Shown: in pieces, positions 3,326-52,965 of the stretch
Layout: every line of letters begins with the position of its first letter
How positions within the stretch are numbered: position 1 is the first letter of the stretch
From: Candidatus Hydrogenedentota bacterium
GTDB taxonomy: Bacteria; Hydrogenedentota; Hydrogenedentia; Hydrogenedentales; GCA-2746185
DNA: 64,000 nucleotides
Assembly (NCBI GenBank): GCA_947486375.1
Contig: CANKTP010000001.1
Coordinates: 17,118-81,117, forward strand
Direction of reading: 5' to 3'
Translations under genes and position numbers: made by a program
Notes under the pieces: model-generated
Databases searched by the model: none
What the model saw: the letters and a program-made list of their open reading frames with translations, nothing else
What the model was told of the DNA's origin: nothing

Positions 3326-3384
3326 TGTGGCGGCATGGCGGGGTAGCCGATGCCGGCAAGCCGGTACGCAGTAAGGAGCAGGAC

Positions 3385-27360: not shown

Positions 27361-27451
27361 CTTGTGGTAGCATGAAGCGTAGCGCATTTCTTGTGCGCTG
27401 CGGAATCTGTATCATCGAATGTCGTGATTGGATCAAGTGGGAGGGGAAGAC

Positions 27452-30400
27452 GTGCGGCATCAGCCGGAATCCGAAACAGGGGGCGGTGTTTCGGGTTTTC
27501 GTGTGCCGGTCTTGGCGTTCACCCTTGTCGCCCTGCTTGGGGCCTTTGCCGCGTCTGCGGCAGAATACGCAACCGAGTTTTTCGAAGGAACGGATGTCGA
27601 TCTAGGCGGGCAGTCGTTCACGTTCACCCCGGATGCGTCTGGGGGGAACTATGCGGTTTGCCGGTCATTGGCGGCTGCCTTTCCTGCCGCAGTGGACGCT
27701 GCGGCCCAGATTGTCCTGGGCGACGACGACTTTGAGGAAATCGTCCTTCTAGACGGGGCGACGGTTGGATATTTTGGCCAATCGTACACGTCCGTTTTCG
27801 TCGGCAGCAACGGGTACCTGACGTTCGGCTCGGGTGACTGGGGTTATTTCGAGTCGCTCGAGGCCCACTTCGACTTTCCGCCGCGGATTTCGGCCCTGTT
27901 CGACGACCTGAACCCCACGGCGGGGGGCTCGGTCTTTTTTGAACAAGCGGCCGACCGTATCGCGGTCACCTTTCAAGACGTGCCCGAATATAGCGTGGGC
28001 GGGGCGAATAGTTTTCAGGTCGAGCTTTTCTTCAGCGGGACCATACGGATCACGTATTTGGGTCTGTCGACGCTGGATGGGCTGGCGGGGCTTTCGGCGG
28101 GGCAGGGGTTGCCGGACGATTTTCAAGAGAGCGATTTCTCAGGCCTGCCCATGGGGTGCGACGACCTCGCGATCTCGCCGCAGGCGCCGTTCGACTCTTA
28201 CGGCCTGGTGGGCGGCCCGTTCGGGCCGTCCGCAAAGGTATACACGCTTTCCAATGCGGGGACCCAGCCGCTCGATTGGAACGCCGGGACTATCTCGCCC
28301 GTGACGTGGATGTCCGTGGTGCCCACAGGGGGGACCCTAAATCCGAGCGAGTCGGTCGTGATAGCGGTCGCGCTCACGGGCGAGGCCGACACCCTGCCGG
28401 CAAGCGCTGTCCCTTATTCGACCCTAATCGCGATTACGAACGCGACAAGCGCGCGAACGAGTTTCCTCGAGGCGGGGTTGGAGATTCGTAATCCTCCGGG
28501 AGATCTCCTTATCCGGGACAATGTAATCCCCAGATATGACCGCCGGTTGTCATTCCGTGACGTCGCCGTCGGTTCGACGGGCGGAGTACCCAATTCGGCG
28601 CTCGGCGTCATTTCGTTGAAGAACCTCGGGCCGGGCGCCCTTACCATCGCCCGGATCGGCCTGATGCGGTATTTCGAGAGTTTCAGCGACGGACTCGCTT
28701 CCGGATGGACGCCCGACGTGGGCGACAACTGGGCGGCGGCGAACAGCATGTTCCGAGCCAGGAACACCTCGACCGATCCCGATTTCATGACCGCCGTCGA
28801 GTCGACCGAATGGAACGAGGACATCGCGGTCGAGGTCACCACGGTCCAACAAGGAAACGATTCGCATCCGCACGGGATAGCCATCGCGGCGTCGGAAGGT
28901 TTCGACGCCGGCGAATTCGACGGGACGTTGCACGCCACCGGGAGCGGTTATGTGTTTCTTATCGCGTCGAATGGCGCCTTTAGCGCGTGGAAGTTCGAGA
29001 ACGGAAGCCAGATTCCGCTAAAGGCGTGGAGCTATTCGGCGGCCATCGAATCCGTGGCGAACGACTTGCGCGTGACGGCCGTTGCCGAACCCGATGGCGG
29101 CGTCCGGTTTCGATTCGCGATCAACGGGACGCAGGCGTGGAGCGGGGAGGACCTCGAGCCGCTTCCCAACGGCCGCATCGCCCTCATTGGATATAGCGAG
29201 GGCAATAGCACCATCTATCGCTTCGACAACATTCTCGTCAGTCCGCCGGGGGCGGAAGATGGGGTATCGGCCTCGACGCCTGCTTTCGGTTTGCCAGCGG
29301 ACAGTCTCCCCGACTTGCCGTTGACCATCGAGGCCCAAGCCGAGGCGTCTTTCGACGTCCTGTTTCAGCCCGACCACGAGGGTGACTTCAGGGACGTGCT
29401 GGTAATCCTGAGCGACGACGCCGACGACCCGGACGCCCAGGTCTCGCTCGAGGGCGCCGGCGAATCCGTGATCGAAATCGTCCACGATCCGCTGCCCGAC
29501 ACCGTCGATTTGGGTCCGTATAGCGCGATCGCCGCCATCACGGCCGGCGCCGGGCTTCTCGAGTCGGAATTGTGGCTCTATTATCGAGTAGTCAGCGGCG
29601 GACCATTCGCGCGCTTGCCGCTTTCGGTCTTGGAGAGCGGAAGTTATTTCGCCGAGATTCCCGCCCAAGCATTGGGAACACAGGTCGAGTACTACATTTC
29701 GGCGAGTGACGTCATGGGGCATGTCCTTACGGATCCGTTTAGGGTCCCCGATCGGCTCCATTCATTCATCGTTGGGCTACCGTCCTTGGTCGTGACTGTC
29801 CTGGCCCCGACCCTGGATGTGGAGTTGGCGTCCGGCGACAGCCAGACGATCCCGGCGTCAGTCCGTCTCGACAACGTGGGTTATGGCGACTTGATTTGGA
29901 GCGTAGGCGAGACGGTCCGTTCGCTTGCCGGGACGATTCAGTCCGCGTCGCTGCAACCGTTTGCCGTGCGGCCGGGGACCGAGGATATTGCGACCAAGGG
30001 GGTGCAACAACCGGCCTCCGGCAGTCATTCCGGAGTCGAGTCGATCGGCGGACCTGACGAAGGGGGATACACCTATACCGACAGTATCGAGCCCGGCGGA
30101 CCGTCGGTCGGCCAGTATTGGGTCGAGATAAGCGAGACCGGCACGAACCTGGGCATGACAGACGACGTATACGCCTTTCCGATCCCGCTCGATTTCATCT
30201 TCGATTTTTACGGGACGGCGTACACGGAAGTCGCCGTGGGGTCGAACGGGCTGATTTATTTCGAGGACACCTACCTCGGGTACGGCAATTCGTGCATTCC
30301 GGGAATGAACTACTACGGCGTGAATCGATTTATCGCGCTTTATTGGGATGACCTATATCCATCTGGAACCAACAACGTCTATTGGCAGGTGACGGGAGAC

Positions 30401-33400
30401 GCGCCGAACCGCAAATTTGTGGTGCAGTGGCACCACGTGGCGCATTTCGGCGCGGGCGGCGATCTCACCGCCCAGGTCCAGCTATTCGAAAGCGGCGGAA
30501 AGATAGTGCTGCTCTACCAGAACGCCGCGCCCACGTTTGGCCAAAACGCGACCGCCGGAATCCAAGGCGACCCGGAGACGGGCCTGCAGTACCGCTGCGA
30601 CGCCCCCAACCTCGAGGGAGGCTTGGCCGTCCTGTTCCAGCGAGGGGTGGGTTGGCTCGATGAGGTCCCGACCTCGGGAAGAATCCCGGCGGGCGGGTCT
30701 TCGACCATCGACCTTGTCTTCGACGCCGCGGGCTTGCCGCCGGGCTATGAGGAGGGGGCCCGGCTCGTCTTCTCGAGCAACGACGCCGACACGGCGGTAC
30801 CGGACTTCGCCGATGCCAGCTTGCGCGTGGCGCAAGCGGTCCGAATTGACCACGATCCCCTGGGAGACACGGGCGACACGGCCGGGCCATACCCCGTTTG
30901 CGCGAATATCACGGCGGTCGAAGGCGTGGATACAAGCGCGCTTTGGGCGTATTACCGCGTCAACGGCGACGGGGCATTCCTCCCCGCACCCATGTCTAAC
31001 ACCGGCGGCGATAATTTTTGCGGTTCAATTCCGGGCCAACCGATTGGCACGGAAGTCGAATACTATCTTGTCGCGCAGGACATGCTTGGCGGGGTCACGC
31101 GCCATCCGCCACAAGCGCCGTCCCTCGTGCATGCGTTCCACGTTGTCGATGCATCGGGCCAAATTGAGGTGATCGACCCCGTCGAGCCGTCGAACGACCT
31201 GTTCCTGCCATTCTCGCCGCCGGCGCTGGAAATTGGGACAAGCGCGGTCCGGACAGTGACCATTCGGAATGCCGGATTGGCGGCGTTGACCATCACGGGA
31301 ATTCTCGATAGTTTCCTGTACCGCGAAAGTTTCGACGACGGACTTGCCCAAGGTTGGGTCGAGGCGGTCGACTCCCAGTGGAACGCGGTCGACGGGGAGT
31401 ATCGCGCATTGACGGACCAACCCGGCGTCTGGATGCAATCAACTTATGCCGCCGCGACTTGGGAAGACCTTTCCGCGAGCGTCGTGATGCGCCGCGCGGG
31501 CGACACCGGGAACGTGTCGGCGTTGGCGGTGCGCACAAGCCCGGATTTCGACTTGGGATCGTACAGCGGATCGGCTTATGCGGTCGGCATCGACGGTTCC
31601 GGCAATTTTTGGGTCATCCGGTTTAGCCCCGGGGCCTATGCGTGGCTTCAATCTTGGACCTTCTCGCCGTATCTGAACACCGGCGAGTCGGCAAATGAGG
31701 TCACCCTCAGCGTCGAGGGCCCCGCGATTGGAGTCTATTTCAACGGGAACTTGGCGTGGATGGGATTCGACTTGGGTCTTGCAGGCCCCGGCGGCATCGC
31801 CCTCGATGGCTACAGCGGCTATGGCTTGGCGACCACCCATGTATACGACGACTTCGAAGTAGGGCAGCCGTTGCCCGCCCCGGCCGGACTGAACGCCGCG
31901 CAGCAATGGTACAACGGACATGCAAACGAGGCGGGATCGCCGGAGCTCGCCCCGCCAAACGATTTCGTTCCGCCCTATCCCGGCGGCGATCCGGGGGCGC
32001 TGGCGGATGCGACCGAAGTGCCGGAGACGCTCCCCGATGTATTCGAGTTGCAGGCGGTGCCCGAGCTGCCGTTGTTGCTGGCGCCGGACGCATCGGTCAC
32101 CTTTGACGTGGCCTTCAACCCGGTCGAGACCGGCGAGTTCAGCGGGGCCGTCGTGATCGAGAGTGACGATCCGGTGTCTCCCGAAGTAATCCTCGTCCTG
32201 ACCGGAATGGCATCGGAAGCCCTCGCGCTCGCTCATGTGCCGTTGCCGGACACGACGAACGCCCTGGGGCCATACCCAGTCGAGGCTTTGGTGACGTCGT
32301 TGTATGGGGTCGCCTCGGCGACCCTGCGGTGGAGTATCGATGCGGGACAGAATTTCACCGAAGTCGAGATGGTCGAGGGACAGGCTGGTGTCCACTCGGG
32401 CAACATTCCGGGACAGGACTCCGGCACGACGGTGTTGTATTCGATCGAGGTGGTGGACAGCCTCGATGCCTCCGTGGCCGACCCCGTCGGGGGCGGAACG
32501 CATCAGTTCCAAGTGACGGGCATACCAAACCTTACGCTTTCCCCCTCCAATCTAGAATTCGAGATTCCCCATGGCGAAACGGAAACCCGCGAAATTACAT
32601 TGCAAAACACCGGGAATTGGCCGGCCACTTGGTCGCTTCGCGAGTTGTTTGCGCCAAACCTAAAGGCACTCGGCGTGAACGCGCCGCAAGGCGGTCCGGG
32701 CGCGGCGCCATTGGCGGGCGCGAATCGCCCGAAGCCCCCGGGCGGAGGTCCGGCGGTGGATTGGCGTACGGCACACGTCCCCGGTCGATTGCTCGTGAAG
32801 TTCGCGCCAACCAAGTCCGGCCTGTCGGCCAAGGCGTCTGTCCATGCCTTTGCGGGCGGCCGCCCGATTCACTCGTTCCGCTCGATTCCGTTGGATGTGG
32901 TGCAAATTCCGCGCGGGGCGAACCTCGCGGCGATGGCGGCGGCATACCGCGCCCGCCCGGAAGTCGAGTACGCGGAACCCGATTACATCGTGCAGGCCGA
33001 CGTGTTCCCCGACGATCCCGCCTTCGCGCAACAATGGGCACTGCACAATACCGGGCAGACCGGCGGCCTCGAGGATGCCGACATCGATGCCCCCGAGGCG
33101 TGGGACACGCAGACCGGTAGCGCTACCGTGGTCGTGGCCGTCATCGATACCGGGATCGACTATACCCACCCGGATCTGGCCGCCAACATTTGGATCAACG
33201 AGGCCGAGGCCAACGGGACGCCCGGGCTCGACGACGATGGCAATGGCATCGCGGACGACCTCCACGGGGCGCGCTGGACCGATGGGACGGGTGCGCCGAC
33301 CAGCGGCGACCCGATGGACGGCAATGGCCACGGAACGCACGTGGCGGGGACTATCGGCGCGGTGGGCAACAACGGCACCGGTCCCGCCGGCGTGGCGTGG

Positions 33401-36400
33401 GACGTGCGCCTAATGGGCCTCAAGTTCCTGACTGACAGCGGCAGCGGTTCCATCTCGGACGCCGTTTCGGCCCTCGAGTACGCCATCGAGATGGGGGCCC
33501 ACGTGTCGAGCAATTCCTGGGGCGGGGGCGGGTTCAGCCAGGCGATGGCAGACATGATTGACGCGGCGCGCGCGGCGAACCAGCTTTTCATCGCCGCGGC
33601 GGGCAACGAGTCCCAGGACAACGACGCCAATCCGCACTACCCAAGCAGTTACGAACTGGACAATATCCTCTCGGTTGCGAGCAGCGACCAAGCCGACGCG
33701 ATGTCTTGGTTCAGCAATCATGGGGCGACCTCGGTCGACCTCGCCGCCCCGGGGTCGGATATATATTCGACTTGGCCGGGCGGCGGGTATAACACGATTA
33801 GCGGGACATCGATGGCCACGCCGCACGTCGCGGGCGTTGCCGCGCTCTTGTTGGGAAGCGCCCCAGACACGCCGTACTCCGACCTCAAGGCATGGCTGCT
33901 ATCGAGCGCCGATGTCCTGCCCGCATGGAGCGGGTTAACCTTGAGCGGCGCGCGCCTGAACGCCTCCGCGGCGCTCGGCAACTCGGGCAAGCCCTGGATC
34001 GACGAGGACCCAATTGAGGGAACGCTCGCCTCGGGCGAATCCAAGACGATCGCCGTGACCGTCGATACCACTCGACTCGAAAATGGCTTCTCCGATACGG
34101 CGATTTTGTCGATTGCCGGCGATCCCGACGGCGCGATCGAAGCCGGGGTGTCCCTGAATGTGGCCGGGTACGTTGCCTTTGACCATGATCCCTTGGTGGA
34201 CACAACCGCATCCGGCGACTACGAAGTGTGCGCCATGATTACGGCGCTGTCCGGTTCGATTGTCCGTACCGAGCTGTTCTGGAGCGTCGACGGGGGCGCA
34301 TTCACCGCGATTCCCATGACCGGCAGCGGCGGCGGCAATCTGGACTGCGCGGCGATACCGGCCCAAGCCGTCGGGTCGGATGTGTGCTATTACATTGAGG
34401 CCGAGGACGATCAAGGCCACGTTCAACGCAGGCCCTTCGAGGGCGCCGTCGCGCCGATTTGTTTCCAGGTCCAGGGAATTCCAAACTTGGAAGTCGCACT
34501 GCCCGAACCTGGCGGCCTGGATTTCTTCCTCAACCCGGGCGCCGCCGAGACCCGCGGTATCGTGATCACGAATTCGGGCACATGGCCCGTCGATTGGTCC
34601 CTGGGACTTCCGGGAGCGGGAGTGCTGACGACCACGATCGTCGATCTGCCGGCCATCTCCGCCATACCACGGGCGGGTATTTCGGGTGTTTTACCCGAGG
34701 GATGGGCCAGTTCGGGCCGTCCTTCGTCGCGGGAGGCCGTGCGCTCCTTGATACGCGCCGATGCCACGCCCGTCGATCTATTGATATTGTCGCCGAATAG
34801 CGTTCCGTCGACGCTGCAGGCCGGTCTGGAGGCATTCGAGGACATCGGCGCCCTGGACTATTTCGACGCCGCGATTTCCCCTCCCATCCCGGCCGATCTC
34901 GCGCCGTACGGCGTCGTGATCGTGGCGAATGGATTCTACTGGGCGGACGCCGAGGCGACAGGAAACGTGCTGGCGAGTTATGTCGATTCCGGGGGTAAAG
35001 TCATCGTCGCCGAGGCGGGATTCGACGGGTTCTGGGGATATGGCCTCCAGGGCCGGTTCGCGGACGAGTCCTATGGACCCTTCGTCGGCGGGCTCATTGA
35101 CCAATCCATTCAAAGGACCCTCGGCGCCCACGATGCCGATCATCCCATCATGGCCGGTGTCGAGTCCCTGGCCGATTCCGTCGTTACCCTGGTGGATTTG
35201 CAGCCCGGGGCCCAATGGGTCGCGGAGTGGGGGGATGGAGTTCCCCTCGTCGCGGTCATGGATTTTTCGTCCGTGGTCGGAATCAACATGTTCCCCTTCG
35301 ATTACGGCAACATCTCCGGAGACTATATATCCCTGTTCCATAATGCGGTCGTTTGGCTGGCGGATGGAGGGACCTCGAACGGGTGGATGTCGATGGGATC
35401 GGCATCGGGCAGGCTCGACCCCGGGGCATCGGTCGAGGTGCTCATCACGGCGGACGCGACCGGTCTGCACGACGGATTCCATGCGTGCCGGGGACTCGAA
35501 TTGTCGGGCGATCCGGATGGCGTACTGGATGTCACGGCGTGCCTGACCGTGTATAACGGCGCGCTTTTCCTCGGGCATTCGCCCCTGGAGGACACTTCGA
35601 ACGAGGGGCCGTATCCCGTCGAGACTACCATCGTTTCGGCCAGCGGCGTGTCGCGCGCGGACCTGTACTGGAGCACGGACGGGGGAGCGGTATTTGCCAC
35701 GACGCCGATGATCCCCATCTCCGGCGATTCGTACGGCGCATCGATCCCCGACCAGCCCGTGGGCACGATCATCGACTACTACCTCGAGGCCGAGGACGGC
35801 ATCGGCAATATCGCCGCGGAACCCGATACGGCGCCAGCCTTGTTGCACCGGTTTGAAGTCGTATCGACTCCCCCCGATATTTTCGTGACCGACTCGGTGG
35901 TCCCCGCGGACGATGGGATCGTGTCCTTCGATCCGCCGATCCCGATCGGGTCGAGCTCGGTCGAATCCATCACGGTGGAGAACCTGGGCGAACAGCCGCT
36001 CACCCTGAGCGGCGCGAGCGTGGCGTACAGGGTATCGGACAACAACAGCCCGCAAGGACCGGCCTTCGACTGGATCGAGATTGGCGTAAGCGGGACCAAC
36101 CTTGCCCTCATCGACGATAGTTATTCGTACCCGATCTCCCTGCCGTTTGGTTTCGAGTTCTACGGAAACGAATATACGGATATCGCCGTGGGATCGAACG
36201 GGGCGGTCTATTTCGAGGACAAATATTTTGCCTTTGCCAATTCCTGCATCCCCGGGAGCGGTGCCGTGGACGTCAGCCGGTTCATCGCCTTGTATTGGGA
36301 CGATCTCAGCCCGTCCGGCATCGACAACGTCTACTACCAGATTGTGGGCGAAGCCCCAAGCCGCAGGCTCGTGGTCGAATGGAGCAACGTGCCGCACGTT

Positions 36401-39400
36401 TGCTGCGGCGGGTCCCTGACCGCGCAAGTGCAACTCTTCGAGTCCACCGGGCACATACTCTACTTGTATTCGGAAACGGACCCCGGGGAAGGGGAGGGCG
36501 CCACCGCCGGTATTCAGGATTCCCCATCGCAAGGCCTTCAATATAGTTGCGACGATTCGGTGCTTGCGCCGGGATTGGCGGTGTTGTTTCAACCGGAACG
36601 GTATTTCGCCCTCGAGAACCTGCCCGACTTCCCGGCGGTGTTGGACCAGTTCGATTCGTTGTCGTTCGACGTCCGGTTTCAATCGCCCGACATTGGGAAT
36701 TTTCTCGGCGCGGTATCCATCCGGAGCGACGACCCCGACGCCCCCGAGGTTCAAGTCGATGTGGCCGGGTCGGCGGTCGATGTGATCGTGATCGGCCATA
36801 ATCCCTTGGGCGACACGAGCTTGGCCGGCCCGTATTCCGTGGAAGCGACCATCGCGGCCCCGCATGGCCTGGTGCGGGCAGACCTCTTGTGGAGCGTGGA
36901 CGGCGGAAATTCGTTCACATCCACGCTATTGTCCATTGTATCCGGCGATCTTTACGAGGCATCGGTTCCCGGTCAGCCCGTGGATACGGTGGTCGATTAC
37001 TACATCGAGGCGGAGGACTCCATGGGCAGCGTGCGCCGCGAGCCCGCCGATGCACCCTTCGCCACGCATCGGTTCTCGGTCGTGCCGCCGTCTGGCGACA
37101 TTGCCGTTTCGGACACCGCCCTGCCCGCCGACGACCGATGGATTCCGTACTCGCCGCCGATCGTCGGGCCCGGCGATAGCGTACTTCATACAATCACGGT
37201 CGATAACGCGGGCCTCGGAAACTTGGTTATCACCTCGATTCGCGCGGGCTTGTACTACGTCGAGAATTTTGAGGATGGCCTGCCGCAGGGTTGGACGGAA
37301 TCGGTCGACTCGCACTGGACGGTAACAGGGGGCGAATACCGCGCCCAAGCGGGATTTCCGGGCGTGAGCATGCAGTCGCGTTACGACGCCGCGTCCTGGG
37401 ACAATCTTTCGGCCCGGGCGCTGATTCGACGCACGGGAAATTCGTCCAACGTTTCGGTGTTGGCGGTCCGCACCAGCCCGGATTTCGACTACGCGACATT
37501 TGCCGGGTCCGCGTATGCCACGGGCATCAACGTGGACGGGACGTATTGGGTCATCCGGTTCAGCCCCGGCGGATTTTCATGGCTCCAATCGTGGACATTC
37601 TCCCCCTATCTCAATACCGGGGAAGCAACCAACGATGTGATGTTCAGCATCGACGGGGACGCCATCAACGTCTACTTCAACGGCAATTTGGCATGGAGCG
37701 GCTTCGACAGCGGCCACGGCGAGGCCGGCGGCATCGCGCTGGTGGGGTATAGCGGTTCCCTGTTCGAGATCGCCCATTTCTACGACGACGTCGAGGTCGG
37801 CCTTCCGGTACCGCCCGTTGAAGGCCTGTCGGCGGCCCAAGCGTGGTACAACAACCGTCCGCTCGAGGGGGGAACGCCGGCGGAGGCGCCGCCGGGTGCC
37901 GCCATCGCGGAATTTCCGGGCACGGCGGGAGGCCCGATTGTGGGAGATGCCCTGTCGGCGGAATCGGTGATGCCGGCATTCGTGACGGAAGGACTTCCGT
38001 CGTTGCCCGCCGTGCTGGGACCGGGCCAGTCATTCGCATTCGAGGTGCGATTCCAACCGGAGGCGCAAGGCGAGTTTACCGAGACCTTGTTCATCAACAG
38101 CGACGATCCCGATACCCCGGCATTGGAGGTGGGGTTGACCGGGACCGCCGGCGATCTTTTCGGAATCGAACACGGGCCGCTTGGCGACACGATCAACGAT
38201 GGGCCCTATGTGCTCGGGGCCACGATAACGGCCGCGAACGGAATCGCTCGCGCCGACACCATTTGGACCGCGGACGGCGGAGCCACGTTCTCGTCCGTCT
38301 CGATGGCGAATGTATCCGGCGATCATTACGTCGCGGCGATCCCGGGAGGACACCCCGACGGCACGGTCATCGGGTATTACATCGAAGTCGAGGATGCCGT
38401 GGGCAACATCGACACGGGACCCGGCGGGGCGCCGGTCGAGTTATACGAGTTCACGATCGAGGCGCCGCCAGGCGATCTCGCCGTGTTCGATTCGGTGGAT
38501 CCCGTGGACGACCGGCTATTGCCGTTCTCGCCTCCAACGGTGACGGTGGGCTCGAGCGTTGTCGAAACGATTACGGTCCTCAATGATGGGCTCGGGCCCC
38601 TGACCATTGGGAGCGTGCTCGGAGGATTATTCTACGCGGAGAATTTCAACGATGACTTGGCCCAAGGATGGGTCGAGACCGTTGACGCCCAATGGAATGT
38701 CTCGGGCGGCGCATACGCGGCCCGGGAAGATGTCCTGTCCACATGGATGCAGGCATCGTACGATACCGCGCCCTGGGAGAATTTTTCGGCAAGCGTCCGT
38801 ATGTCGCGGACGGCGACCGCGTCGAATACCTCGGCATTCGCGGTGCGTACCAGCCCCGATTTCGATATCCAGACATCGACCGGGTCCGCGTACGCCACCG
38901 GTATTCTCGGAGACGGTACTTTTTGGGTCATTCGGTTTAGCCCCGGCGGCTATGCATGGCTCCAATCGTGGACCTTCTCTGCGTATCTGAATACCGGGGA
39001 GGCGGTCAACGACGTCGCCATGAGCGTCAGCGGCGACGCGATCGCCGTCTATTTCAACGGTCATTTGGCCTGGAGCGGCTCCGATTCGGGAATTCCCGAT
39101 GCCGGGGGAATTGCGCTCATGGCCTACAACAACCCGGAAGGCATTTACCTCTACGACGACATTGAAGTGGGTCTGCCCATACCGTCCGCGGATGGATTGA
39201 GCGAGGCCCAAGCCTGGTACAACAGCCATCCCCTCGAGGGAGGATCGCCTTGGGAAGCGCCCGCGGAATCCATGGTCGCCGCGTTTCCCGGGGAGCTGGG
39301 CGACCCGATGGCTTCGGACAATCGCACATCTGGCGGCGAATTGGGATTGGAGTCCGTCGGGTATTCCGCGCTGTTCAATTCCGGGACCGATGGATTCACG

Positions 39401-42400
39401 GCAGACCCCGTCATGGGCGGTGGCTTATGGCACCAGACCGCGGGCTGCGAAGCGGCATCCGGGGACCACTCCACGCCCGGGGCGCTGTACTACGGAGTGG
39501 ACGGGGCATGTAACTACGACGCGGGCATTACCGCCGGGGCCGTGGTATCGCCGCCGATTGCGCTACCCGGGGACGCGACGGCAACCTTGACGTTCGCGTA
39601 TTTCCTGGAAACCGAGCGCGCCCCATCGTACTTCGACATGGCCTCGGTGGAGGTTTCGTCAGACGGGGGCGTCACCTATACGCTCGTGGCCCATAACGAT
39701 GCGAACGCAGGGGCCGCATTGATCGAGGAAACCGAGGGTGCGTGGCGGCAGTTGACCGTGAATCTGGCCGCGTTCGCCGGCGACGAAATTGTGATTCGCG
39801 TCGGTTTCGCGACGGTCGACAGCGGCGCGAATACCTATCGCGGATTCTATATTGACGACCTGTCGGTCGACCTGGATTCGACACAGCCATTTGAATTCGA
39901 AGGTCTCCCCGCATTGCCTGCAGTGCTGGCGCCGGGCGAATCTTTCGTGTTTGACGTCCGGTTCCAACCGATCGTCGATGGTCCATTCACCGGCGTCGTC
40001 CACATCGAGAGCGACGATCCGGAGACTCCGTCGGCCCGGGTGGATTTGTCGGGAATGGCCCAGTTCGCCATCGTCATCGATCACACGCCGCTGGGCGCCG
40101 CCGCTGCGGATGGGCCTTATGCGGTCGACGCCGCGATACTCAGCCAGGCCGCCCTCGTGCGTTCCGAGGTGTTTTGGAGCACGGACGGGGGGGCGAATTA
40201 TGCGTCCGTCCCGATGGCGATTGTCTCCGGCGATCTTTATCAGGCGCTAATTCCCGGGCAACCCGTGGGGACGCAGATCAAGTACTACATCGAGGTCGAG
40301 GACTCGCTGGGACTTGTGATTGCCCATCCGGCCGCGGCCCCCGGGGAGACGCACCAATTCGACATCGTGATTTATCCCGGCGACATCGAGGTCACGGATT
40401 CCGTCGAACCCCCGGACGACTTTTCGGCCCCATTCTCCGCCGTCAATATTGGCGCCAGTGCCACCGAGACAATGACGATCCGGAATAACGGCTTGGGGCC
40501 GCTCTCGATCGAGAATATTTCGGAGGCCGCGGCGCCCGGGATGAATTCGGCGCCGGACTCCGTCGGCGGCCCTGACGCCGGGGGCTACACGTTTATCGAC
40601 AATTACGAGCCCGGCGGACCCGCGTTCGACTGGATCGATGTGACCGGTACCGGCACGAACCTAAACCTTGTCGACGAGAGCTCGTCGCCACCGATCGCGA
40701 TTCCCTTCGCATTCGAGTTCTATGGGTCGGCGTACGACGCATTCGTAGTGGCCGACAATGGCGCGATCTATTTTGAGGGCGGTTACTTCGGTTATGCGAA
40801 TGCCTGCCTCCCCGACGGCGGCGTCTCGGGGATCGGCGCCTTTATTGCGCCATACTGGGCCGACCTATACCCGGGAGGGACGAACAACGTCTATTATCAG
40901 GTCGTCGGCGATGCCCCCAATCGCAGGCTCGTGATCGAGTGGTACAACGTCTATAGCGTGATCGGGGGCGAAACCGTCACCGCCCAAGTCCAATTGTTCG
41001 AGAACGGCGGCGACATCCTGTTTCTCTATGAAGACGCGTATCCCGTTTACGGCGGATACGCGGCGGCGGGTATCCAGGGAGATGCCGTCACCGGAATTTC
41101 ATACAGCTGCCAACAAGGCGATCTCTACCCGGGTTTGGCGGTATTGTTCGAGCCCGGCGATGCTCCCGGCGAAGGCGAAGGAGAGGGGCCATCCGCGTTT
41201 TTCATCGAGGGTCTTCCCGAATTTCCGGCGACCTTGGCCCCGGGCGACTCGCTCTCCTTCAGCCTGCGTTTCGAGCCGATTGTGGCCGGCGAGTACTCGG
41301 GGACCGTGTCCATCGAGAGTGACGATCCTTCCTCGCCGGTGATTGAGACGAACTTGACTGCTTCCGGCTTCGAGGCGTTTGGCGTCGCCCATGATCCCCT
41401 CGAGGGCGCATACGATTTTGCCCCATACGCGATTTGCCTGGAACTCAGCGCGTTCGAGGGGCTCAATCCCGCCGAACTTTGGTTGTATTACAGCATCGAT
41501 GGCGGGGTCACTTATGCGGGGCCGTTGCCCCTCATCCTGTCGGGCGAGGGCGTGTATTGCGCTGACATTCCCGCGCAACTTGCCGGCGCCACCGTGCATT
41601 ACTATGCCGTGCTCAGGGATGCATTGGGCCGCGTGGGGACATTTCCGCTTGGGAGTCCGTGGAGTTTCGAGGTTGCCGGCACGCCGGACTTCGAGGCGGA
41701 CCATCCGGACGAAATCGTATTCGTGCTAAATCCGGGGGCGTCGCAAACGCAAACGATTACCGTCGGCAATACCGGGCCCCAAGCCACGGCGGCGGGCGAG
41801 TGGCACATCGCGTCCGACGTGCTGCTGGCGTATGCAGGCGGACCCAAACCGGACGAGTTGCGTCGTCAACTCGAGGCCTTCCCCGAGGTCGCGCGGGTCG
41901 AGGCGTTTGACGCGTCCCGCTCGACACCCACCCTCGATGAACTCGAGGACTTCAACGTGGTGATCGTGCTGAGCGCGGATTCGTTCGCCGACCCGCTGGC
42001 GATGGGCGACGTCTTGGCGCTCTACGCCGCGGGCGGCGGCAAAATCATCCAGACCCTGGCGACCTTCGAGTCTTCCGCGGCGTGGGAGCTCGGGGGCGCG
42101 TTCGCGCGCGACTACAGCCCCTTCACGTCTGGCGAGTTTCAATTCCGGTACATGCAACTCGGCGACTACGATCTCGCCCACCCCATCATGGCCAGCATCG
42201 GATTCATCGAGGCCGAGTTTGCCGTCGGGGTTGGATTGGCGGAAGACGCCGAGCCGGTCGCCGATTGGGACGACGGGACCCCGGCGATCGCCACGCGAGG
42301 CGGAAACGTCGTCGCCATGAATGTCCTCCCGTTCGCGCAAGGCGAATGGCAGGCGGATGCGAACGTCCAGCAGCTGTTGCGCAATGCCATCGAATGGCTC

Positions 42401-45400
42401 AATCGCCAATGGCTCTCCGTGTTTCCCGTGTCCGGGAACTTGGAAATTGGCTCGGAAACCGTCGTGAGCCTGACGGCAAGCGCGGAAGGTTTTTCCGACG
42501 GCGACGAAACTACCACGACCCTTGTGATTGCCGGGGACCCCCATCCGGACGGTAACATCGAGCGGACCGTGAGACTGATCGTGGACGAGTATCTCTCGAT
42601 CGTGCATGAGCCGCTTGAGAACACGCCCGATGCCGCGGGCCCCTATCTGGTCGATGCGACGATCACCGCGGAAAACGGGGTGAACGAGTCGAAACTGAAG
42701 CTCTATTACAGCGTGAATCGCGGACCGATCGAGGAAGTCGCACTGCAGCCATTGGGGCTTGGCGCCTATCGCGGCGAAATTCCCGGCCAACCCTTCGGGA
42801 CCTTGATCGAGTACTACCTTTCGGCCCAGAACGCGATCGGGCAGTTACTGACCAATCCCATCGAGGCGCCAGACGACCGCCATGCGTTCAGGGTTTTCGA
42901 TCCCAGCTCCAACCTTTTCGCGGCGACATTCGAAACGGGCGGGGACGGCTTCGTCTTCGACAACGGCGCGGGCACCGGCGGCGGTTTGTGGCACCATACC
43001 ACGGCGTGTCAGGCAGTTGGGGCGGAAGGCGCCTTGTACTACGGTATCGACGCCTCCTGTTCCTATGACGCGGGCAACACCCAGGGCTTCGCGGTTTCCC
43101 CGCCCGTGGTCCTGCCGCCGCCGGGTCAATCCGCGACGCTGACATTCTCCTACTTCCTCGAGACCGAGGGGCTGCCCTCGAGTTACGACAGGGCGTCGGT
43201 CGAAGTCTCGACCGACGGGGGCGCCTCATGGGGGTTGGTCGCCCACAATTACGCCGGCGCGGCGGCCGGACTCGTGCTATTGCAGGATCCGACGGCCTCA
43301 TGGCGCCGCGCGACGGTCAATCTGTCCGCATTCGCCGGCTCGGAAATCATGCTTCGCCTCGGGTTCGCGACCGGCGATTCGATCGCGAACGGCCATAAGG
43401 GGTTCTATGTCGACGACCTGTCCATCGACCTCGCTCCGGACTGTGAAGTCCCGGCAAATCCGAGTCCGGCCGACGCAGAGGCGAATGTCGCGGTCAACGT
43501 CACGTTGGCATGGGACCAGGCCAAGGCGTTGGCCGAATATCTCGCCGCGTTGCGTGCGGGCGAGACCGGGGTCGAGTCCCTGGTTCGCGGCAGCGACGAG
43601 ACTCCGCTGTTCCCGCCGGTGCCGTCCGAGACGCCGCCCGTCGTTGTGCCCGACGCCCTGGCGAGCGTGGCGATCTTTCAGAACCTGGCGCCCTGGGGCA
43701 CGGCCTCGAACCAGGTCGTCTTGACGGCCAATGGAATCTCGCACCAAATCTTCGGCTCCGCCGACATGGGATACGTCGACTTGGCGGGCTTTGACAAAGT
43801 CATCGTGTCGTCTGTTCAGGATGCCCAGTTTTATGCGGCCCTGGCGGCCAATCGAGACTGGTTCGAGGACTATGTGATCTCGGGCGGATTGCTCGATCTG
43901 CACCTGGCGTCGTATACCTCGGCCCCGGCCGACGGCTTGGAGCTGCCGGGCGGCTTCGTGACACAAAGTTTGTTGTCCAGCTCGGTCTCGATTGCGGATC
44001 CGTTCCACCCCATCGTGACGGTGCCCCACGCAATTTCCCACGCGGAGCTTCAGGGTTGGAATTATTCGACGCACGGCATTTTCAGTTCGGCGCCGCTGGA
44101 CGCGGTGCCCATCGTGAACGAGACCGGCAGCGGGCTTCCGTGCGCCATGGAGTTGGCGCTCGGCGCCGGGCGTATCCTCGCCACGCTCCAGACGGTCGAA
44201 TGGATCGGTTCGTCGCCCAATTATTTCGAGAACATGACCCTCCACGAACTCGGCGGGTGCGCGCCCTCGTACGACGTATATTTCGGGACCGATCCCAATT
44301 CGCTGGCCCGGGTTTACACCGGCCTCGAGCAGCCCTACTGCGATTTTCCCTCGCTGAGTCCCGGCACCGTCTATTTCTGGCAGGTGGATGCGATCCGTTG
44401 CTGTGGCGCCACCCTTGGCCCCGTCTGGAGTTTCACGACCGGCACGGGACAGCTTTCGGTGGATGCGTTTGAAGCCGACGACTCGCCCCAGTCCGCGTCG
44501 CCGATCGCGCTCAACGGCGTGCCCCAGGAGCGGACCCTCGATCGACCGGGCGACGTCGATTGGGCGATTTTCTTCGCCGCGGCGGGACAGGCCATTCATG
44601 TGGACGCGACGGCCTCTGCCCCGGGCGCGCAGCTCTTTGTCCAACTGTATCGCTTGGAAGGCATTGCCCTTGTGGCCGAATCCGTCCCGCTCGGGAATCG
44701 CGACGTTTCCGCCTCGATCGAATGGACCGCCGACGCGAGCGGGGGATACCTTGTCCGCGTCGCCACGGCCACTCCCGCGGCCACCGGCGCCAGCGCTGCT
44801 TACCGCCTCGACGTTTGGGTCGAATCAATCATCCCCAGCACGCTCATCGTCCGCGCCGTCGACGAAGCGACAGGAGAGCCCATCGACGGCGTGGAAATCA
44901 TCATCGACGACCTCGCCAACGGTTACTTCACGAATGAGGATGGATTGTTTACCCTCCCAATGGAGCCGGGTCCCCACACGGTGTGCGCAAATGGCGGCGC
45001 CGTCGGTTTCACGGCCACCTGCGAGAGCCCGGCAAACGTCGACGTATCCGACTCGGAACAGGAAGTCGTCCAATTCGAGCTCGATCCCGACGCGAAACTC
45101 GAGGTGACGCCCGCCGGGCTTAACTTCGGGCGGGTATACCTCGGCTCGACGGTGGAGCGCCTCGTTACCGTCACAAACGTCGGCACGGGCACGCGCGTCA
45201 TCACCGGCGACGCTCTGTGGAACGCGCTCGGTCCCATACGAATCATGGACGGGTCTCACTATGTTTTAGACCCCGGTCAATCGAGCCAGGTTATCGTCGA
45301 ATTTGCCCCCCTGGCACCGGCGATCACCCAAGGGACGATGGAATTCACGACCGGTGTCCGCGGCAGCGAGACGATTGTGGTGTCCGGGACCGGCAGGGAA

Positions 45401-50622: not shown

Positions 50623-52092
50623 TTGGCTTTACACAATAATTCGGCGGAGTCCGCAAGGGTGAACGGCGTCAAACGAAAAGTTCATTTTGTCGGTGTGGGC
50701 GGCATCGGCATGAGCGGACTTGCCGAAATCCTCCTGAATCTCGGATACGAAGTGTCCGGCTCCGATATTCACGCATCGGAAATCACCCGCCGCCTCGAGG
50801 AATTCGGGCTCTCCTTTCGCGAGGGCCATCAGGCATCGAATATCGGCGATGCTGGCATCCTCGTCGTCTCCGCCGCGGTGGCTGCGGACAATGTCGAGGT
50901 TGTCGCCGCGAAAGATCGCTCGACTCCCGTCATTCACCGGAGCGATTTACTCGCGGATCTGCTCCGGCTGAAGCCAAATGCGGTGGTGGTGGGCGGCACC
51001 CACGGCAAGACGACAACGACCTCGATGATCTCCGCCATCCTCGACCGGGCGAACATCGGGGCGACCTCGATCATCGGGGGCATCCTCCATCGGAGCGGCA
51101 CGAACGCGCGCTGGGGGACCGGCGAATATATTGTCGCCGAGGCCGACGAGCACGACGGATCGTTCCTGCGGCTTCACCCGACGATCGCGGTGGTGACGAA
51201 CATCGACGCCGAGCACCTCGAGTATTACGGCACCATTGACCGGATCAAGCGGGCCTTCGTCGATTTTTGCAATGGCGTGCCCTTCTACGGGTATTCGATC
51301 CTCTGCCGCGACGATGCCGGTGCCCGCGCCATACTCGAGCATGTGGACAGCGTGTGCCTTACCTATGGATTGGACGACGGTGCCTCGTTGACCGGGTCGA
51401 ATGTCGTCCTTGCCGAGGGGCGTCCCGGCGAATCCAACCTGCAGGGGCTCTCCCGCCTGCGTACCCGCTTCGACGTCACGAGCCATGACGCGCGCCTGCG
51501 CGCCACGGGCCGCCTGGGGACCGTCGAGATCAATGCAATTGGCGAGGACAACGTTCGCAACGCCCTCGCCGCGTGCGCCGTCGGCCTATGCCTCGGGATG
51601 CCGTTTCAGCGTATCGCCGATGGCCTCCGGGATTTCGACGGGGTACAGAGGCGTTTGCAGGTCCGGGGTACCGCCCGCGGGGTGGTCGTGGTCGAGGACT
51701 ATGCCCATCATCCGACCGAACTCGCCAGCACGCTGAACGCCGTCCGTTGGGCCGCGCCCAAGCGCGTCATTTGCGTGTTCCAACCGCACCTCTACAGCCG
51801 CACGAAATTCTTTAGCGACGACTTTGCCCGTGTCCTGTCGACGGCCGATCGGGCCGTCGTGACCGCAATCTATCCGTCGCGGGAGGAGGCCATGCCGGGC
51901 GTGGACGCCGCGCTCATCGTGGATGCCGCCCGCTCCGCGGGGGCCGAGCATGTCGAGCTGATCGAGGACATGAATGACGTCCCCGGGAGGCTCGCACCTG
52001 ATTTGCGCGCGGGTGACCTCGTGCTTGTGCTCGGCGCGGGAAACATCAACCGGATTGCCGGTCCGCTCTTGCGGGAAATTGAGGCGCGCTGA
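50623..52092 (+). CDS. murC: UDP-N-acetylmuramate--L-alanine ligase
   Basis: 'VHFVGVGGIGMSGLAEILLNLGYEVSGSD' and 'VVVGGTHGKTTTTSMI' are present, with a Mur ligase C-terminal domain. The track start is TTG; a GTG 12 codons downstream is an alternative. Confidence 0.85.
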   Translation: MALHNNSAESARVNGVKRKVHFVGVGGIGMSGLAEILLNLGYEVSGSDIHASEITRRLEEFGLSFREGHQASNIGDAGILVVSAAVAADNVEVVAAKDRSTPVIHRSDLLADLLRLKPNAVVVGGTHGKTTTTSMISAILDRANIGATSIIGGILHRSGTNARWGTGEYIVAEADEHDGSFLRLHPTIAVVTNIDAEHLEYYGTIDRIKRAFVDFCNGVPFYGYSILCRDDAGARAILEHVDSVCLTYGLDDGASLTGSNVVLAEGRPGESNLQGLSRLRTRFDVTSHDARLRATGRLGTVEINAIGEDNVRNALAACAVGLCLGMPFQRIADGLRDFDGVQRRLQVRGTARGVVVVEDYAHHPTELASTLNAVRWAAPKRVICVFQPHLYSRTKFFSDDFARVLSTADRAVVTAIYPSREEAMPGVDAALIVDAARSAGAEHVELIEDMNDVPGRLAPDLRAGDLVLVLGAGNINRIAGPLLREIEAR

Positions 52093-52871
52093 TGGCACGG
52101 CCCCGCAAACGCAGGCGGGCTGGACGCGGACGTTTCGTCGATCGTCCCATCGCATATGTCCTGGAGGCCGCGCTCGCCCTCGGCCTGCTCTACACGTTCG
52201 GCCAATCGTTCTATTCATACGCGCAGACCTCGCCTGCCTTCGGCGTCCGGAATATCCAGGCCCTGGGACTCCAGCGGCTCGACCTCGACGAGGTCGTCGC
52301 GGCGTCGGGCCTCACCACCGGGGACAACCTGTTGTTCCTCGACAAGGACGCCATCCGCGCGCGCGTCGAGTCCATGCCCTATGTGAAGTCCTGCGGCTTG
52401 CGGGTATCGTTTCCCGATCTCGTCATCCTCGACGTGGTCGAGCGCGAACCCTTCGCGGCGCTCTTGGTGCATAGCCGGTCATATGAGATCGATGCCGACG
52501 GCACCGTGTTGCGGGAGGTTGGCACCGCCGAGATGCCCCTCGCGCCCTTCATCAGTTGCGTGGGCGGACTGGAATTCGTCGACCTCGGCGACCGCATCGG
52601 CCTGCCCGCCCTGCAAGCCGCCCTCGAGCTTTGGAAAGTGTTCGGCGCCTCGCCGCTCGCGCGGCAATTCGAGATATCCGAAATCGCCGCGATTCATGAG
52701 GACGACCTTCGAATGTACGGTGCGGCCGTTCCCTACGAATTGCGCTGGGGACGGGGTGAATTCGCGGACCAGGCCCGTCGCCTAGAGATTCTATGGGAAA
52801 ACAAGGGAGGAGAGTTGGGATGCAACGAATTCCTCGATCTACGTTTCGGCGAAGGCCTGGTCTGCCGCTAG
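52092..52871 (+). CDS. ftsQ: Cell division protein FtsQ/DivIB (TM anchor + POTRA domain)
   Basis: The ATG overlaps the murC stop (ATGA). The N-terminus is basic and followed by a TM helix 'IAYVLEAALALGLLYTF'. A POTRA-like block 'VRNIQALGLQRLDLDEVVAASGL..GDNLLFLDKDAIRARVESMPYVKSCGL' is present. Confidence 0.75.
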   Translation: MARPRKRRRAGRGRFVDRPIAYVLEAALALGLLYTFGQSFYSYAQTSPAFGVRNIQALGLQRLDLDEVVAASGLTTGDNLLFLDKDAIRARVESMPYVKSCGLRVSFPDLVILDVVEREPFAALLVHSRSYEIDADGTVLREVGTAEMPLAPFISCVGGLEFVDLGDRIGLPALQAALELWKVFGASPLARQFEISEIAAIHEDDLRMYGAAVPYELRWGRGEFADQARRLEILWENKGGELGCNEFLDLRFGEGLVCR

Positions 52872-52965
52872 GATGGCCAACCGCGATACCGGGTTTGGAA
52901 ACATGCGTGATAGGATTATCAACGGGGTCTTCCGGGGCATGCCGGAAGCACGGAAAGGACCAGCG

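Follow-up and report, generated by a model that had tools for sequence, protein, structure and literature searches.

An Ig-like module repeated in a giant secreted protein is a relative of the IgSF domain of peptidylarginine deiminase

Results

The recurrent module described here is related to the IgSF domain at the C-terminal end of PPAD, the peptidylarginine deiminase of P. gingivalis. It is an Ig-like beta-sandwich of about 100 residues and not a new fold, and it probably acts as an extracellular structural spacer in a giant surface protein. The window, i.e. the whole stretch of 64,000 nucleotides that was analysed, contains exactly ten full-length copies of the module, which is about 102 amino acids long. 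They are located at nt 29471-42901 in a single giant ORF on the forward strand (nt 27428-50452; 7,674 amino acids), the true start codon of which may lie a few codons 3' of the listed TTG. The host of this secreted protein is a Hydrogenedentota-like bacterium.

The copies were counted with an HMM built from the ten sequences and applied without filters to every ORF in the six reading frames of the window. Nothing beyond the ten copies scored better than E=0.39, and the number is therefore ten rather than the "about 12" of the initial annotation. The regular expression H.PL..[TA] also gives ten sites in the giant ORF. The remaining description in that annotation agrees with the data: the module recurs, all ten sequences quoted as examples are genuine copies, the motif pattern is matched by the consensus, and the copies, at aa 682-5158 of 7,674, are confined to the N-terminal two-thirds of the protein. 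A non-circular significance for the repeat was obtained by pairwise BLASTP among the copies, which gave identities of 28-54% and E-values from 6e-6 to 5e-36. Invariant positions in the ten-copy consensus are H5, P7, L8, Y17, P64, Y74, P89 and F99.

The N-terminus of the giant ORF is signal-peptide-like (aa 26-44, VPVLAFTLVALLGAFAASA), and the C-terminal end has a hydrophobic stretch followed by RRR. A Pfam search with the whole protein gave no Por_Secre_tail or FlgD_ig match, and thus the protein is without a T9SS C-terminal domain (CTD). The last 110 residues matched no NCBIfam sorting-signal model, and a signal of the MYXO-CTERM or PEP-CTERM type was therefore rejected as unsupported. The extracellular character proposed for the module is supported by the signal-peptide-like N-terminus together with the covarying paired cysteines described below.

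Each module closes a cassette, and the ten cassettes were assigned to classes by self-BLAST. Copy 1 (nt 29471-29776, aa 682-783) closes a cassette with NIDO-like and BACON-like domains and a split Ig domain with a beta-rich head. The second copy (nt 30839-31150, aa 1138-1241) follows a NIDO-like head and has a cysteine pair at alignment columns 21 and 64. Copy 3 (nt 32222-32521, aa 1599-1698), the most divergent one, and copy 7 (nt 38162-38464, aa 3579-3679) both close cassettes consisting of a split Ig with a beta-rich head. Copy 4 (nt 34172-34477, aa 2249-2350), with two cysteine pairs, is found after a fervidolysin-type prodomain and an S8 peptidase placed inside a split BACON/ASH-type Ig. 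The cassettes of copy 5 (nt 35567-35866, aa 2714-2813) and copy 10 (nt 42593-42901, aa 5056-5158) contain the two class D heads, and copy 10 is followed by the second MAM-like domain of the protein. NIDO-like heads in a split Ig precede copy 6 (nt 36785-37087, aa 3120-3220) and copy 9 (nt 41381-41680, aa 4652-4751), the latter with a cysteine pair at columns 21 and 64. In the cassette closed by copy 8 (nt 40070-40369, aa 4215-4314), the split Ig holds a beta-rich head and an InhA-like MAM domain. All ten copies are on the forward strand. A third class D copy was suspected after aa 5400, where BLASTP gave no significant similarity.

Just a few linker residues separate each module copy from an ASH/HYDIN/choice-of-anchor-D (or BACON-like) Ig domain, of which only the C-terminal half is found here. 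Its N-terminal half is at the start of the cassette, 250-500 residues upstream, with the head domain between the halves. Judged from the sequence, this Ig appears to be split around the inserted head. Only positions 56-95 of the HYDIN/ASH Ig profile match the native sequence, and when the head was spliced out in silico a contiguous match over positions ~12-99 was obtained. The spliced constructs reached the gathering threshold in four cases out of nine, with two more scoring below it. The earlier remark that a choice-of-anchor-D-like Ig precedes each copy is thus correct but incomplete, as the C-terminal half alone adjoins the module and the N-terminal half is at the cassette start. An AF2 model of a whole cassette (aa 3221-3679, four paralogues as alignment) was poor, with pLDDT 51 and pTM 0.36. 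The head types are the S8 peptidase with its prodomain, NIDO-like, MAM-like and two further classes. The last two gave no Pfam match and no PDB sequence match at E<=1, and the labels "LamG-like" and "glutamine-amidotransferase-like" given to two head classes by eye were not confirmed by the same searches.

No Pfam family matches any of the ten copies even at E<=10, which holds for fibronectin type III and PKD as well as for the remaining Ig-like families with a name, and NCBIfam gave no match to the copies. The models for the choice-of-anchor D / HYDIN-VesB-CFA65 (ASH-type) Ig, NF012200 and PF22544, do not match the module copies; models of this type match the neighbouring split Ig. Pfam CBM_56 (PF22184, gathering threshold 27 bits) is found neither in the copies at E<=10 nor in the whole giant protein. 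A dedicated curated model for the module is absent from the curated domain databases tested.

The ten-copy profile, when searched against PDB sequences, matched the PPAD IgSF domain with E=1.6e-11. Positions 2-99 of the 102 in the profile aligned with chain residues 320-419 (IgSF, G360-E465 in protein numbering), and the entries matched were 4YT9, 4YTG, 5AK7, 5AK8 and 6I0X. In the reverse direction, phmmer with the PPAD IgSF fragment as query gave the giant ORF at a summed E=1.6e-31, aligned at all ten copy positions. The template-free AF2 model of copy 1 has nine strands (pLDDT 95.4, pTM 0.87), in agreement with the beta-sandwich fold expected from the initial annotation. The seven best Foldseek matches of this model in the PDB are all PPAD, with TM 0.80-0.83, rmsd 2.0-2.5 Å over 101-104 columns, 26-28% identity and E of about 1e-7. 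The matches that follow are about 10,000-fold weaker and belong to generic Ig/CopC folds. Because both the sequence and the structure match PPAD, the fold and one homologue of the module have been described since 2015 (PMC4487231).

The exhaustive profile search gave a family of 9,810 representative proteins at E<=1e-3 (clusters at 50% identity) from Bacteria and Archaea, Asgard lineages included, with database names of the kind "hypothetical protein" or "Ig-like domain-containing protein". A protein search by word index, which is limited for so divergent a module, returned no protein at E<=1e-5 with one module alignment and two short proteins with the other. Among the best 150 of the 9,810 proteins, 74% of the gaps between successive copies are below 30 amino acids, and tandem arrays have a period of ~109 amino acids and up to ~20 copies. 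Very long arrays are found in both archaeal and bacterial surface-type proteins, and the giant multi-domain proteins with a signal peptide in which the module occurs also contain PKD, He_PIG and cadherin-like repeats. A suspected similarity to the region between the modules of P0040, an archaeal protein, was not significant in BLASTP.

Most positions conserved in the family have a hydrophobic residue or lie in a turn (I3, A21, I61-P62, Y72-Y73, A76, P87 and F97). Near-invariant polar positions are H5 (92%), D78 (95%) and Y72 (98%), and positions 36, 44 and 57 have conserved aromatics. The cysteine pairs 20/58, 71/96 and 51/55 covary, which suggests optional disulfides in an extracytoplasmic domain.

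Discussion

The module and the PPAD IgSF domain share a length of ~100-106 amino acids, a nine-strand 4+5 beta-sandwich and the motifs I-x-H-x-P at the start and Y-Y-I-x-A-x-D-x-x-G, then P, then F-x-V. In both proteins, which are secreted, the IgSF domain comes after a functional domain. The arrangement is different: PPAD, from Bacteroidota, has one IgSF copy directly between the catalytic domain and the T9SS C-terminal sorting domain, whereas the giant protein has ten copies, each preceded by a split ASH-type Ig rather than by the head, and no T9SS CTD. A catalytic domain (S8) precedes copy 4 alone, and there an Ig half-domain lies between the two. Three relatives, P0154, P0157 and P0159, do end in a T9SS-type sorting domain, which is a feature of context and not of the fold. 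A further criterion for a PPAD-type IgSF domain is a bulge between its last strands that touches the domain before it. The PPAD IgSF domain packs under the catalytic domain and its contacts are solely with this domain of its own chain; the solved structure has no bound metal or ligand, and glycan binding has not been reported (PMC4487231).

Two other kinds of domain are comparable. The gingipains RgpB and Kgp (PDB 1CVR, 4IEF, 4RBM) are secreted proteins in which an Ig-like domain likewise follows the functional, catalytic domain. The topology of the gingipain IgSF domain resembles that of PPAD, but with ~83 amino acids and seven strands it is ~35 Å long compared with ~50 Å (PMC4487231). The module, with nine strands and ~100 amino acids, differs in the same way from this seven-strand barrel-like Ig, which was absent from its PDB sequence matches and from its top 50 Foldseek matches. 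Big_7 and related E-set stalk domains are, like the module, beta-sandwiches of ~100 amino acids in long head-to-tail arrays of surface proteins. Partial Big_7 matches of just ~25-40 residues occur on some relatives and never on the copies of the window, and the module has a conserved signature of its own (H5, Y72-Y73, A76, D78 and P87).

A spacer or insulator function is the most likely one for the module. It is favoured by the long tandem arrays, the mostly hydrophobic or turn character of the conserved positions, the covarying cysteine pairs and the absence of a metal or ligand from the PPAD IgSF domain. The module and the split Ig would form the shaft of a long extracellular fibre, and the shaft would hold the heads apart, each folding and acting independently. 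This role would correspond to the "spacer or insulator" put forward for the IgSF domains of PPAD and the gingipains. In the gingipains a role in folding has been proposed as well (PMC4487231, PMC4804311), the wording "spacer or insulator" being found in the RgpB paper (PMC4804311), and for PPAD, too, this function is a proposal. Some observations run against a spacer: the giant protein, unlike PPAD, is without a T9SS CTD, the near-invariant polar residues H5, D78 and Y72 may belong to a binding or metal site and not to a structural network, and the relatives above the CBM_56 threshold together with a weak match to 7QUZ (see below) leave room for glycan binding.

That the module is instead a carbohydrate-binding module related to CBM56, with affinity for beta-1,3-glucan, is unlikely, although several matches point that way. 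The PPAD IgSF fragment itself has a sub-threshold CBM_56 match (E=5e-4, 20.7 bits compared with 27), and 9 of 77 scanned family members match CBM_56 at E<=0.01, the best with E=2.3e-11. In P0061 (35.7 bits), P0112 (30.4), P0157 (28.2) and P0162 (42.3) the match lies inside a module copy, and because such relatives in the same HMM family pass the gathering threshold, Pfam covers the module family at its edge. Module profiles also match the CBM56-containing glucanase BglH (7QUZ) weakly, with E=0.0016-0.024, and the conserved aromatics at 36, 44 and 57 would fit this reading. As part of the same reading, ten such copies would give the protein a multivalent affinity for a polysaccharide, such as a prey or fungal cell wall, a biofilm matrix or the cell's own glycan layer. 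However, none of the ten copies in the window matches CBM_56, the top 50 Foldseek matches include no CBM56 structure while PPAD takes the first seven places, and when a family member that matches CBM_56 was searched against the PDB, PPAD alone was returned and no CBM56. The similarity in sequence pattern to CBM_56 (BglH, BH0236-type glucanases) is limited to the central ~50-70 residues, and the overlap is a ~50-residue core with the common E-set sandwich pattern Y-Y-R..GG.W..M...Y...YY. The 75-position CBM_56 model lacks the N-terminal H-x-P strand and the C-terminal P...F-x-V strands of the module, and the sequences that match it also touch Big_7, CBM_25, CBM_48 and GlgE_dom_N_S. Long tandem arrays are the usual habit of stalk domains and less so of carbohydrate-binding modules, and the arrays of up to ~20 copies are in this respect more stalk-like. 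The PPAD homologue, with no reported glycan binding, also speaks against a carbohydrate-binding module.

Protein-protein contacts, whether between fibres that associate into a surface lattice or in adhesion to other cells, are an improbable function. Many Ig-like domains of bacterial adhesins do mediate such contacts, and the Ig-like fold, the giant signal-peptide-bearing proteins with PKD, He_PIG and cadherin-like repeats and the great length of arrays in surface-type proteins of Archaea and Bacteria would suit them, but the solved homologue contacts its own catalytic domain alone. It is quite unlikely that the family, which at 50% identity comprises at least 9,810 clusters from Bacteria and from Archaea with their Asgard lineages, would carry a ligand site at H5-Y72-D78 (for a glycan, for example, as in the distantly related CBM56 modules) that makes ten copies or 20-copy arrays multivalent binding devices and not inert spacers, with the cassette of split Ig, head and IgSF as an unrecognised way of building giant multi-enzyme fibres. 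The view of the initial annotation, a wholly undescribed family with a new or unassignable fold, is highly improbable. It was right that no Pfam or NCBIfam model matches the copies, and the database names of the family members also count in its favour. The confident Pfam match that it had named as contrary evidence was not found for the window copies, but the equivalent, a known Ig-like variant, was obtained through the PDB, with significant sequence and structural similarity to a domain solved in 2015; CBM_56 and Big_7, in addition, partly cover the relatives. A new fold, or the absence of a described homologue, is thereby refuted, and only the lack of a dedicated model stands. The carbohydrate- or metal-binding unit suggested in the same annotation is a candidate role, and the solved PPAD domain shows neither a metal nor a ligand.

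The main value of the relationship to PPAD lies in annotation. The IgSF domain of PPAD, known since 2015 from a single oral pathogen, is the sole structure for a very large family, most members of which are labelled "hypothetical" and which occurs in giant surface proteins of both Bacteria and Archaea. A dedicated model seeded from the family alignments would annotate thousands of proteins and end the partial mislabelling as CBM_56. For the biology of PPAD and the gingipains, the family shows that IgSF domains are bound neither to T9SS cargo nor to one kind of catalytic domain, which favours a generic structural role. Greater novelty may lie in the two classes of head domain that matched no Pfam family and no PDB sequence. 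The nested cassette, with a head inside a split Ig and then the IgSF domain, would if confirmed be an example of how a large multi-functional surface fibre is assembled.

Module copies in the giant ORF

The interval in which a recurrent module of about 100 amino acids had been described lies within one unbroken ORF of 7,674 codons (27428-50452, forward strand). A motif search gave ten sites, and the full-length copies lie at amino acids 682-783, 1138-1241, 1599-1698, 2249-2350, 2714-2813, 3120-3220, 3579-3679, 4215-4314, 4652-4751 and 5056-5158 (copies 1-10). Together the copies span nt 29471-42901, which agrees to the base with the interval first described. When aligned (alignment A1) they are approximately 102 amino acids long with a mean column identity of 52%, and H5, P7, L8, Y17, P64, Y74, P89 and F99 are invariant. 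An HMM of A1, run with filters off against all six-frame ORFs of the window, found ten full-length copies, all in the giant ORF, and no further copies in the window (best other score E=0.39). Because an HMM made from the copies themselves is circular in this use, an all-against-all BLASTP of the copies was added, and every pair was significant (28-54% identity, E 6e-6 to 5e-36). The repetition reported in the initial annotation is therefore real, but its number of about 12 is replaced by the ten found with motif search and HMM.

Homology to the C-terminal domain of PPAD

No match to Pfam-A was found for any of the ten copies, even at E<=10, and NCBIfam gave nothing on them. The A1 profile compared with PDB sequences identified the Porphyromonas gingivalis peptidylarginine deiminase (PPAD) with E=1.6e-11, profile positions 2-99 of 102 being aligned to chain residues 320-419, which make up the C-terminal Ig-like (IgSF) domain (G360-E465 in protein numbering). 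This is the reliable figure; the value of 1e-21 obtained with a later module alignment (A2) is inflated, as the PPAD fragment belongs to that alignment. Copy 1, modelled with AlphaFold2 without templates, has nine strands (pLDDT 95.4, pTM 0.87). When this model was compared with the PDB by Foldseek, PPAD entries took the first seven places, with TM 0.80-0.83, an rmsd of 2.0-2.5 Å over 101-104 columns and 26-28% identity (E about 1e-7). The matches that follow have scores approximately four orders of magnitude lower and are generic Ig, CopC and L,D-transpeptidase sandwiches. In the reverse search, the PPAD IgSF fragment matched the giant ORF with E=1.6e-31 among all ORFs of the window, with alignments at all ten copies.

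The profile match, the Foldseek search and the reverse search together show that a known fold and a described, solved homologue exist for the module; only a curated model of the family is lacking. The module is therefore a ten-copy new instance of an already known kind of domain, and an entirely new domain is refuted for both fold and homologue. The family is unnamed, as first described, in the sense that the Pfam search gave no confident match for the window copies and no curated model is dedicated to it; it is not undescribed, since the structure search recovered a known Ig-like domain, the IgSF of PPAD. The value of the finding is in annotation: the family is large, has not been curated and has only one member of solved structure.

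Distribution and conservation of the family

An exhaustive HMMER search with A1 of 1.84 billion cluster representatives gave 9,810 proteins at E<=1e-3, of which 2,486 remain at E<=1e-10 and 229 at E<=1e-30. In the databases they are named as hypothetical or Ig-like domain-containing proteins. The best 150 of the 9,810 proteins contain 1,083 module matches, with gaps of less than 30 aa between consecutive copies in 74%; copies among these usually follow one another head to tail, repeating about every 109 aa, and an array may hold as many as about 20 of them. The interspersed layout of the giant protein, with copies 300-550 aa apart, is a minority pattern. Named bacterial members are from Myxococcota, Planctomycetota and Krumholzibacteria. 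The family also reaches Archaea including Asgard lineages, with long arrays in giant hypothetical proteins there; the representatives are from Candidatus Helarchaeota (P0017 and P0168, 6,707-6,711 aa), Promethearchaeota (P0061), Heimdallarchaeaceae (P0151) and Thermoplasmata (P0040).

Conservation is dominated by hydrophobic and turn residues. The signature in 456 near-full-length instances is H5 (92%), P7 (79%), A21 (86%), D25 (82%), I61 (82%), P62 (88%), Y72 (98%), Y73 (86%), A76 (95%), D78 (95%), P87 (94%) and F97 (79%). Cysteines occur in these instances only in covarying pairs, at profile positions 20/58 (12 of 16-18), 71/96 (18 of 18-19) and 51/55 (9 of 9-10). The 20/58 pair is present in window copies 2, 4 and 9, and copy 4 also has the 71/96 pair. 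This pattern suggests optional disulfides in what would be an extracytoplasmic beta-sandwich, and is an independent check on the strand pairing in the predicted model.

Overlap with Pfam models

Some relatives match several E-set-type Pfam models exactly at the module positions, while the window copies match none. In a one-by-one Pfam scan of 77 family members, CBM_56 (PF22184) was matched by nine (best E=2.3e-11), Big_7 by five, and CBM_25 and GlgE_dom_N_S by two each. The CBM_56 gathering score of 27 was exceeded, each time within a module copy, in P0061 (35.7 bits), P0112 (30.4), P0157 (28.2) and P0162 (42.3). The PPAD IgSF fragment reaches 20.7 bits on the same model, and the CBM56-containing glucanase BglH (7QUZ) is weakly matched by the module profiles (E=0.024 with A1, 0.0016 with A2). 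Among Pfam models CBM_56 therefore lies closest to the family and annotates it in part, with an overlap confined to the central 50-70 residues. The threshold is most often crossed by archaeal-type copies.

Apparently split Ig domains and head domains

Each inter-module stretch opens with an apparent N-terminal Ig half (…GSSxxxTITVxNxGLGxLTI…) and ends, 1-6 residues ahead of the module, with a C-terminal half (…LPAVLAPGxSxxFDVRFQP…SDDPxxP…). The native sequence matches the HYDIN/VesB/CFA65 Ig model of Pfam only at profile positions ~56-95 and below threshold. With the halves joined in silico, a single unbroken match (profile positions ~12-99) appeared in six of the nine constructs. Four of these reached the gathering score of 25.5 bits or more (28.6, 32.8, 32.8 and 30.4) and two fell short of it (23.3 and 18.4). 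One construct reached 39.4 bits with the NCBIfam model choice_anch_D, under the cutoff of 45, and the AlphaFold2 model of a whole cassette was poor (pLDDT 51, pTM 0.36). From the contiguous match restored by splicing, the repeating unit is best read as an ASH-type Ig interrupted by a head domain and, after it, a PPAD-type IgSF domain. The Ig in front of each module, earlier noted as a choice-of-anchor-D-like domain, seems to be split with the head between its halves: the C-terminal half does adjoin the module, but the N-terminal half opens the cassette. The cassettes span 27428-42901 (aa 1-5158), with cassette 7 (37088-38161) as an example, and the giant protein would string together about twenty Ig-like domains and bear ten lateral heads. 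This architecture, which the module helps to bring out, is of secondary interest.

Self-BLAST divided the inter-module stretches into NIDO-like (four), beta-rich without assignment (four), class D (two), MAM (two) and S8 peptidase (one). Pfam and NCBIfam identified a fervidolysin-type prodomain with S8 peptidase (aa 1778-2161), NIDO-like segments, InhA-like MAM domains and BACON-like and HYDIN/ASH/choice-of-anchor-D Ig matches. The beta-rich class (~230-350 aa; window ~37238-37900, aa ~3270-3490, with paralogues at aa 356-676, 1243-1597 and 3680-3967) has no Pfam or PDB sequence match at E<=1. By eye it is a candidate LamG/concanavalin-like domain, and it may be more novel than the module. The two class D copies, at 34748-35557 (aa 2441-2710) and 41822-42583 (aa 4799-5052), are 35% identical (E=3e-35) and match neither Pfam nor PDB sequences; a suspected third copy past aa 5400 gave no significant BLASTP match.

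Function of the module

A structural role is best supported. On this reading the module is a stable spacer of Ig-like fold; jointly with the split Ig it would make up the shaft of a fibre outside the cell and keep the heads insulated from each other. Homology, fold, tandem-array habit, short linkers, hydrophobic and turn conservation and the optional disulfides are the observed parts of this reading. In PPAD the IgSF has neither metal nor ligand bound and is packed beneath the catalytic domain (PMC4487231), and that of RgpB "may act as a spacer or insulator" (PMC4804311); by analogy, a similar role is inferred for the window module.

The main alternative is glycan binding of the CBM56 kind, to which the edge matches to CBM_56 among the relatives and the conserved aromatic residues of the family would point. 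It is unlikely given that none of the window copies has such a match, that no CBM56 structure is among the top 50 Foldseek matches of the module model, and that the family is habitually arranged in tandem arrays. Protein-protein adhesion by the module is improbable.

C-terminal region and genomic surroundings

C-terminal to the modules lie CarboxypepD_reg, nine He_PIG, Big_9/cadherin-like and six PKD domains (Pfam/NCBIfam). A Cys-containing region that follows the PKD array and precedes the last He_PIG (48959-50020, aa ~7178-7530) carries two calcium-binding-like motifs, DLDGDGVSNADEYD and GDFDGDGFTNLDEYD, and is helical by eye; it has no Pfam match and no internal repeat by BLASTP. The tail (50303-50449, aa 7626-7674), 'GCGSAADGHGG…LELSLTIAAFLYASRRRGG…', looks like a sortase-type sorting signal with a Cys motif, a hydrophobic stretch and then an Arg cluster, and has no match to NCBIfam models at E<=10. 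The module relatives P0154 and P0157 end in a T9SS CTD, whereas none is found in the giant protein.

A second very large surface-type protein is encoded by a 2,120-aa ORF (3070-9432, forward strand) with BACON_2, He_PIG and HYDIN-type Ig domains and zero copies of the module by the A1 HMM. The neighbours of the giant ORF encode a GAF-Ser/Thr kinase, MurC, FtsQ, FtsZ, a PilT-like ATPase and DapA. A division-cluster fragment (50623-54222) has the order murC, ftsQ, ftsZ; ftsZ starts two bases past the end of ftsQ and there is therefore no ftsA between them. FtsZ shares 60-79% identity with its counterparts in Candidatus Hydrogenedentota MAGs; on this basis the giant ORF is judged to be chromosomal and to belong to a Hydrogenedentota-like bacterium.
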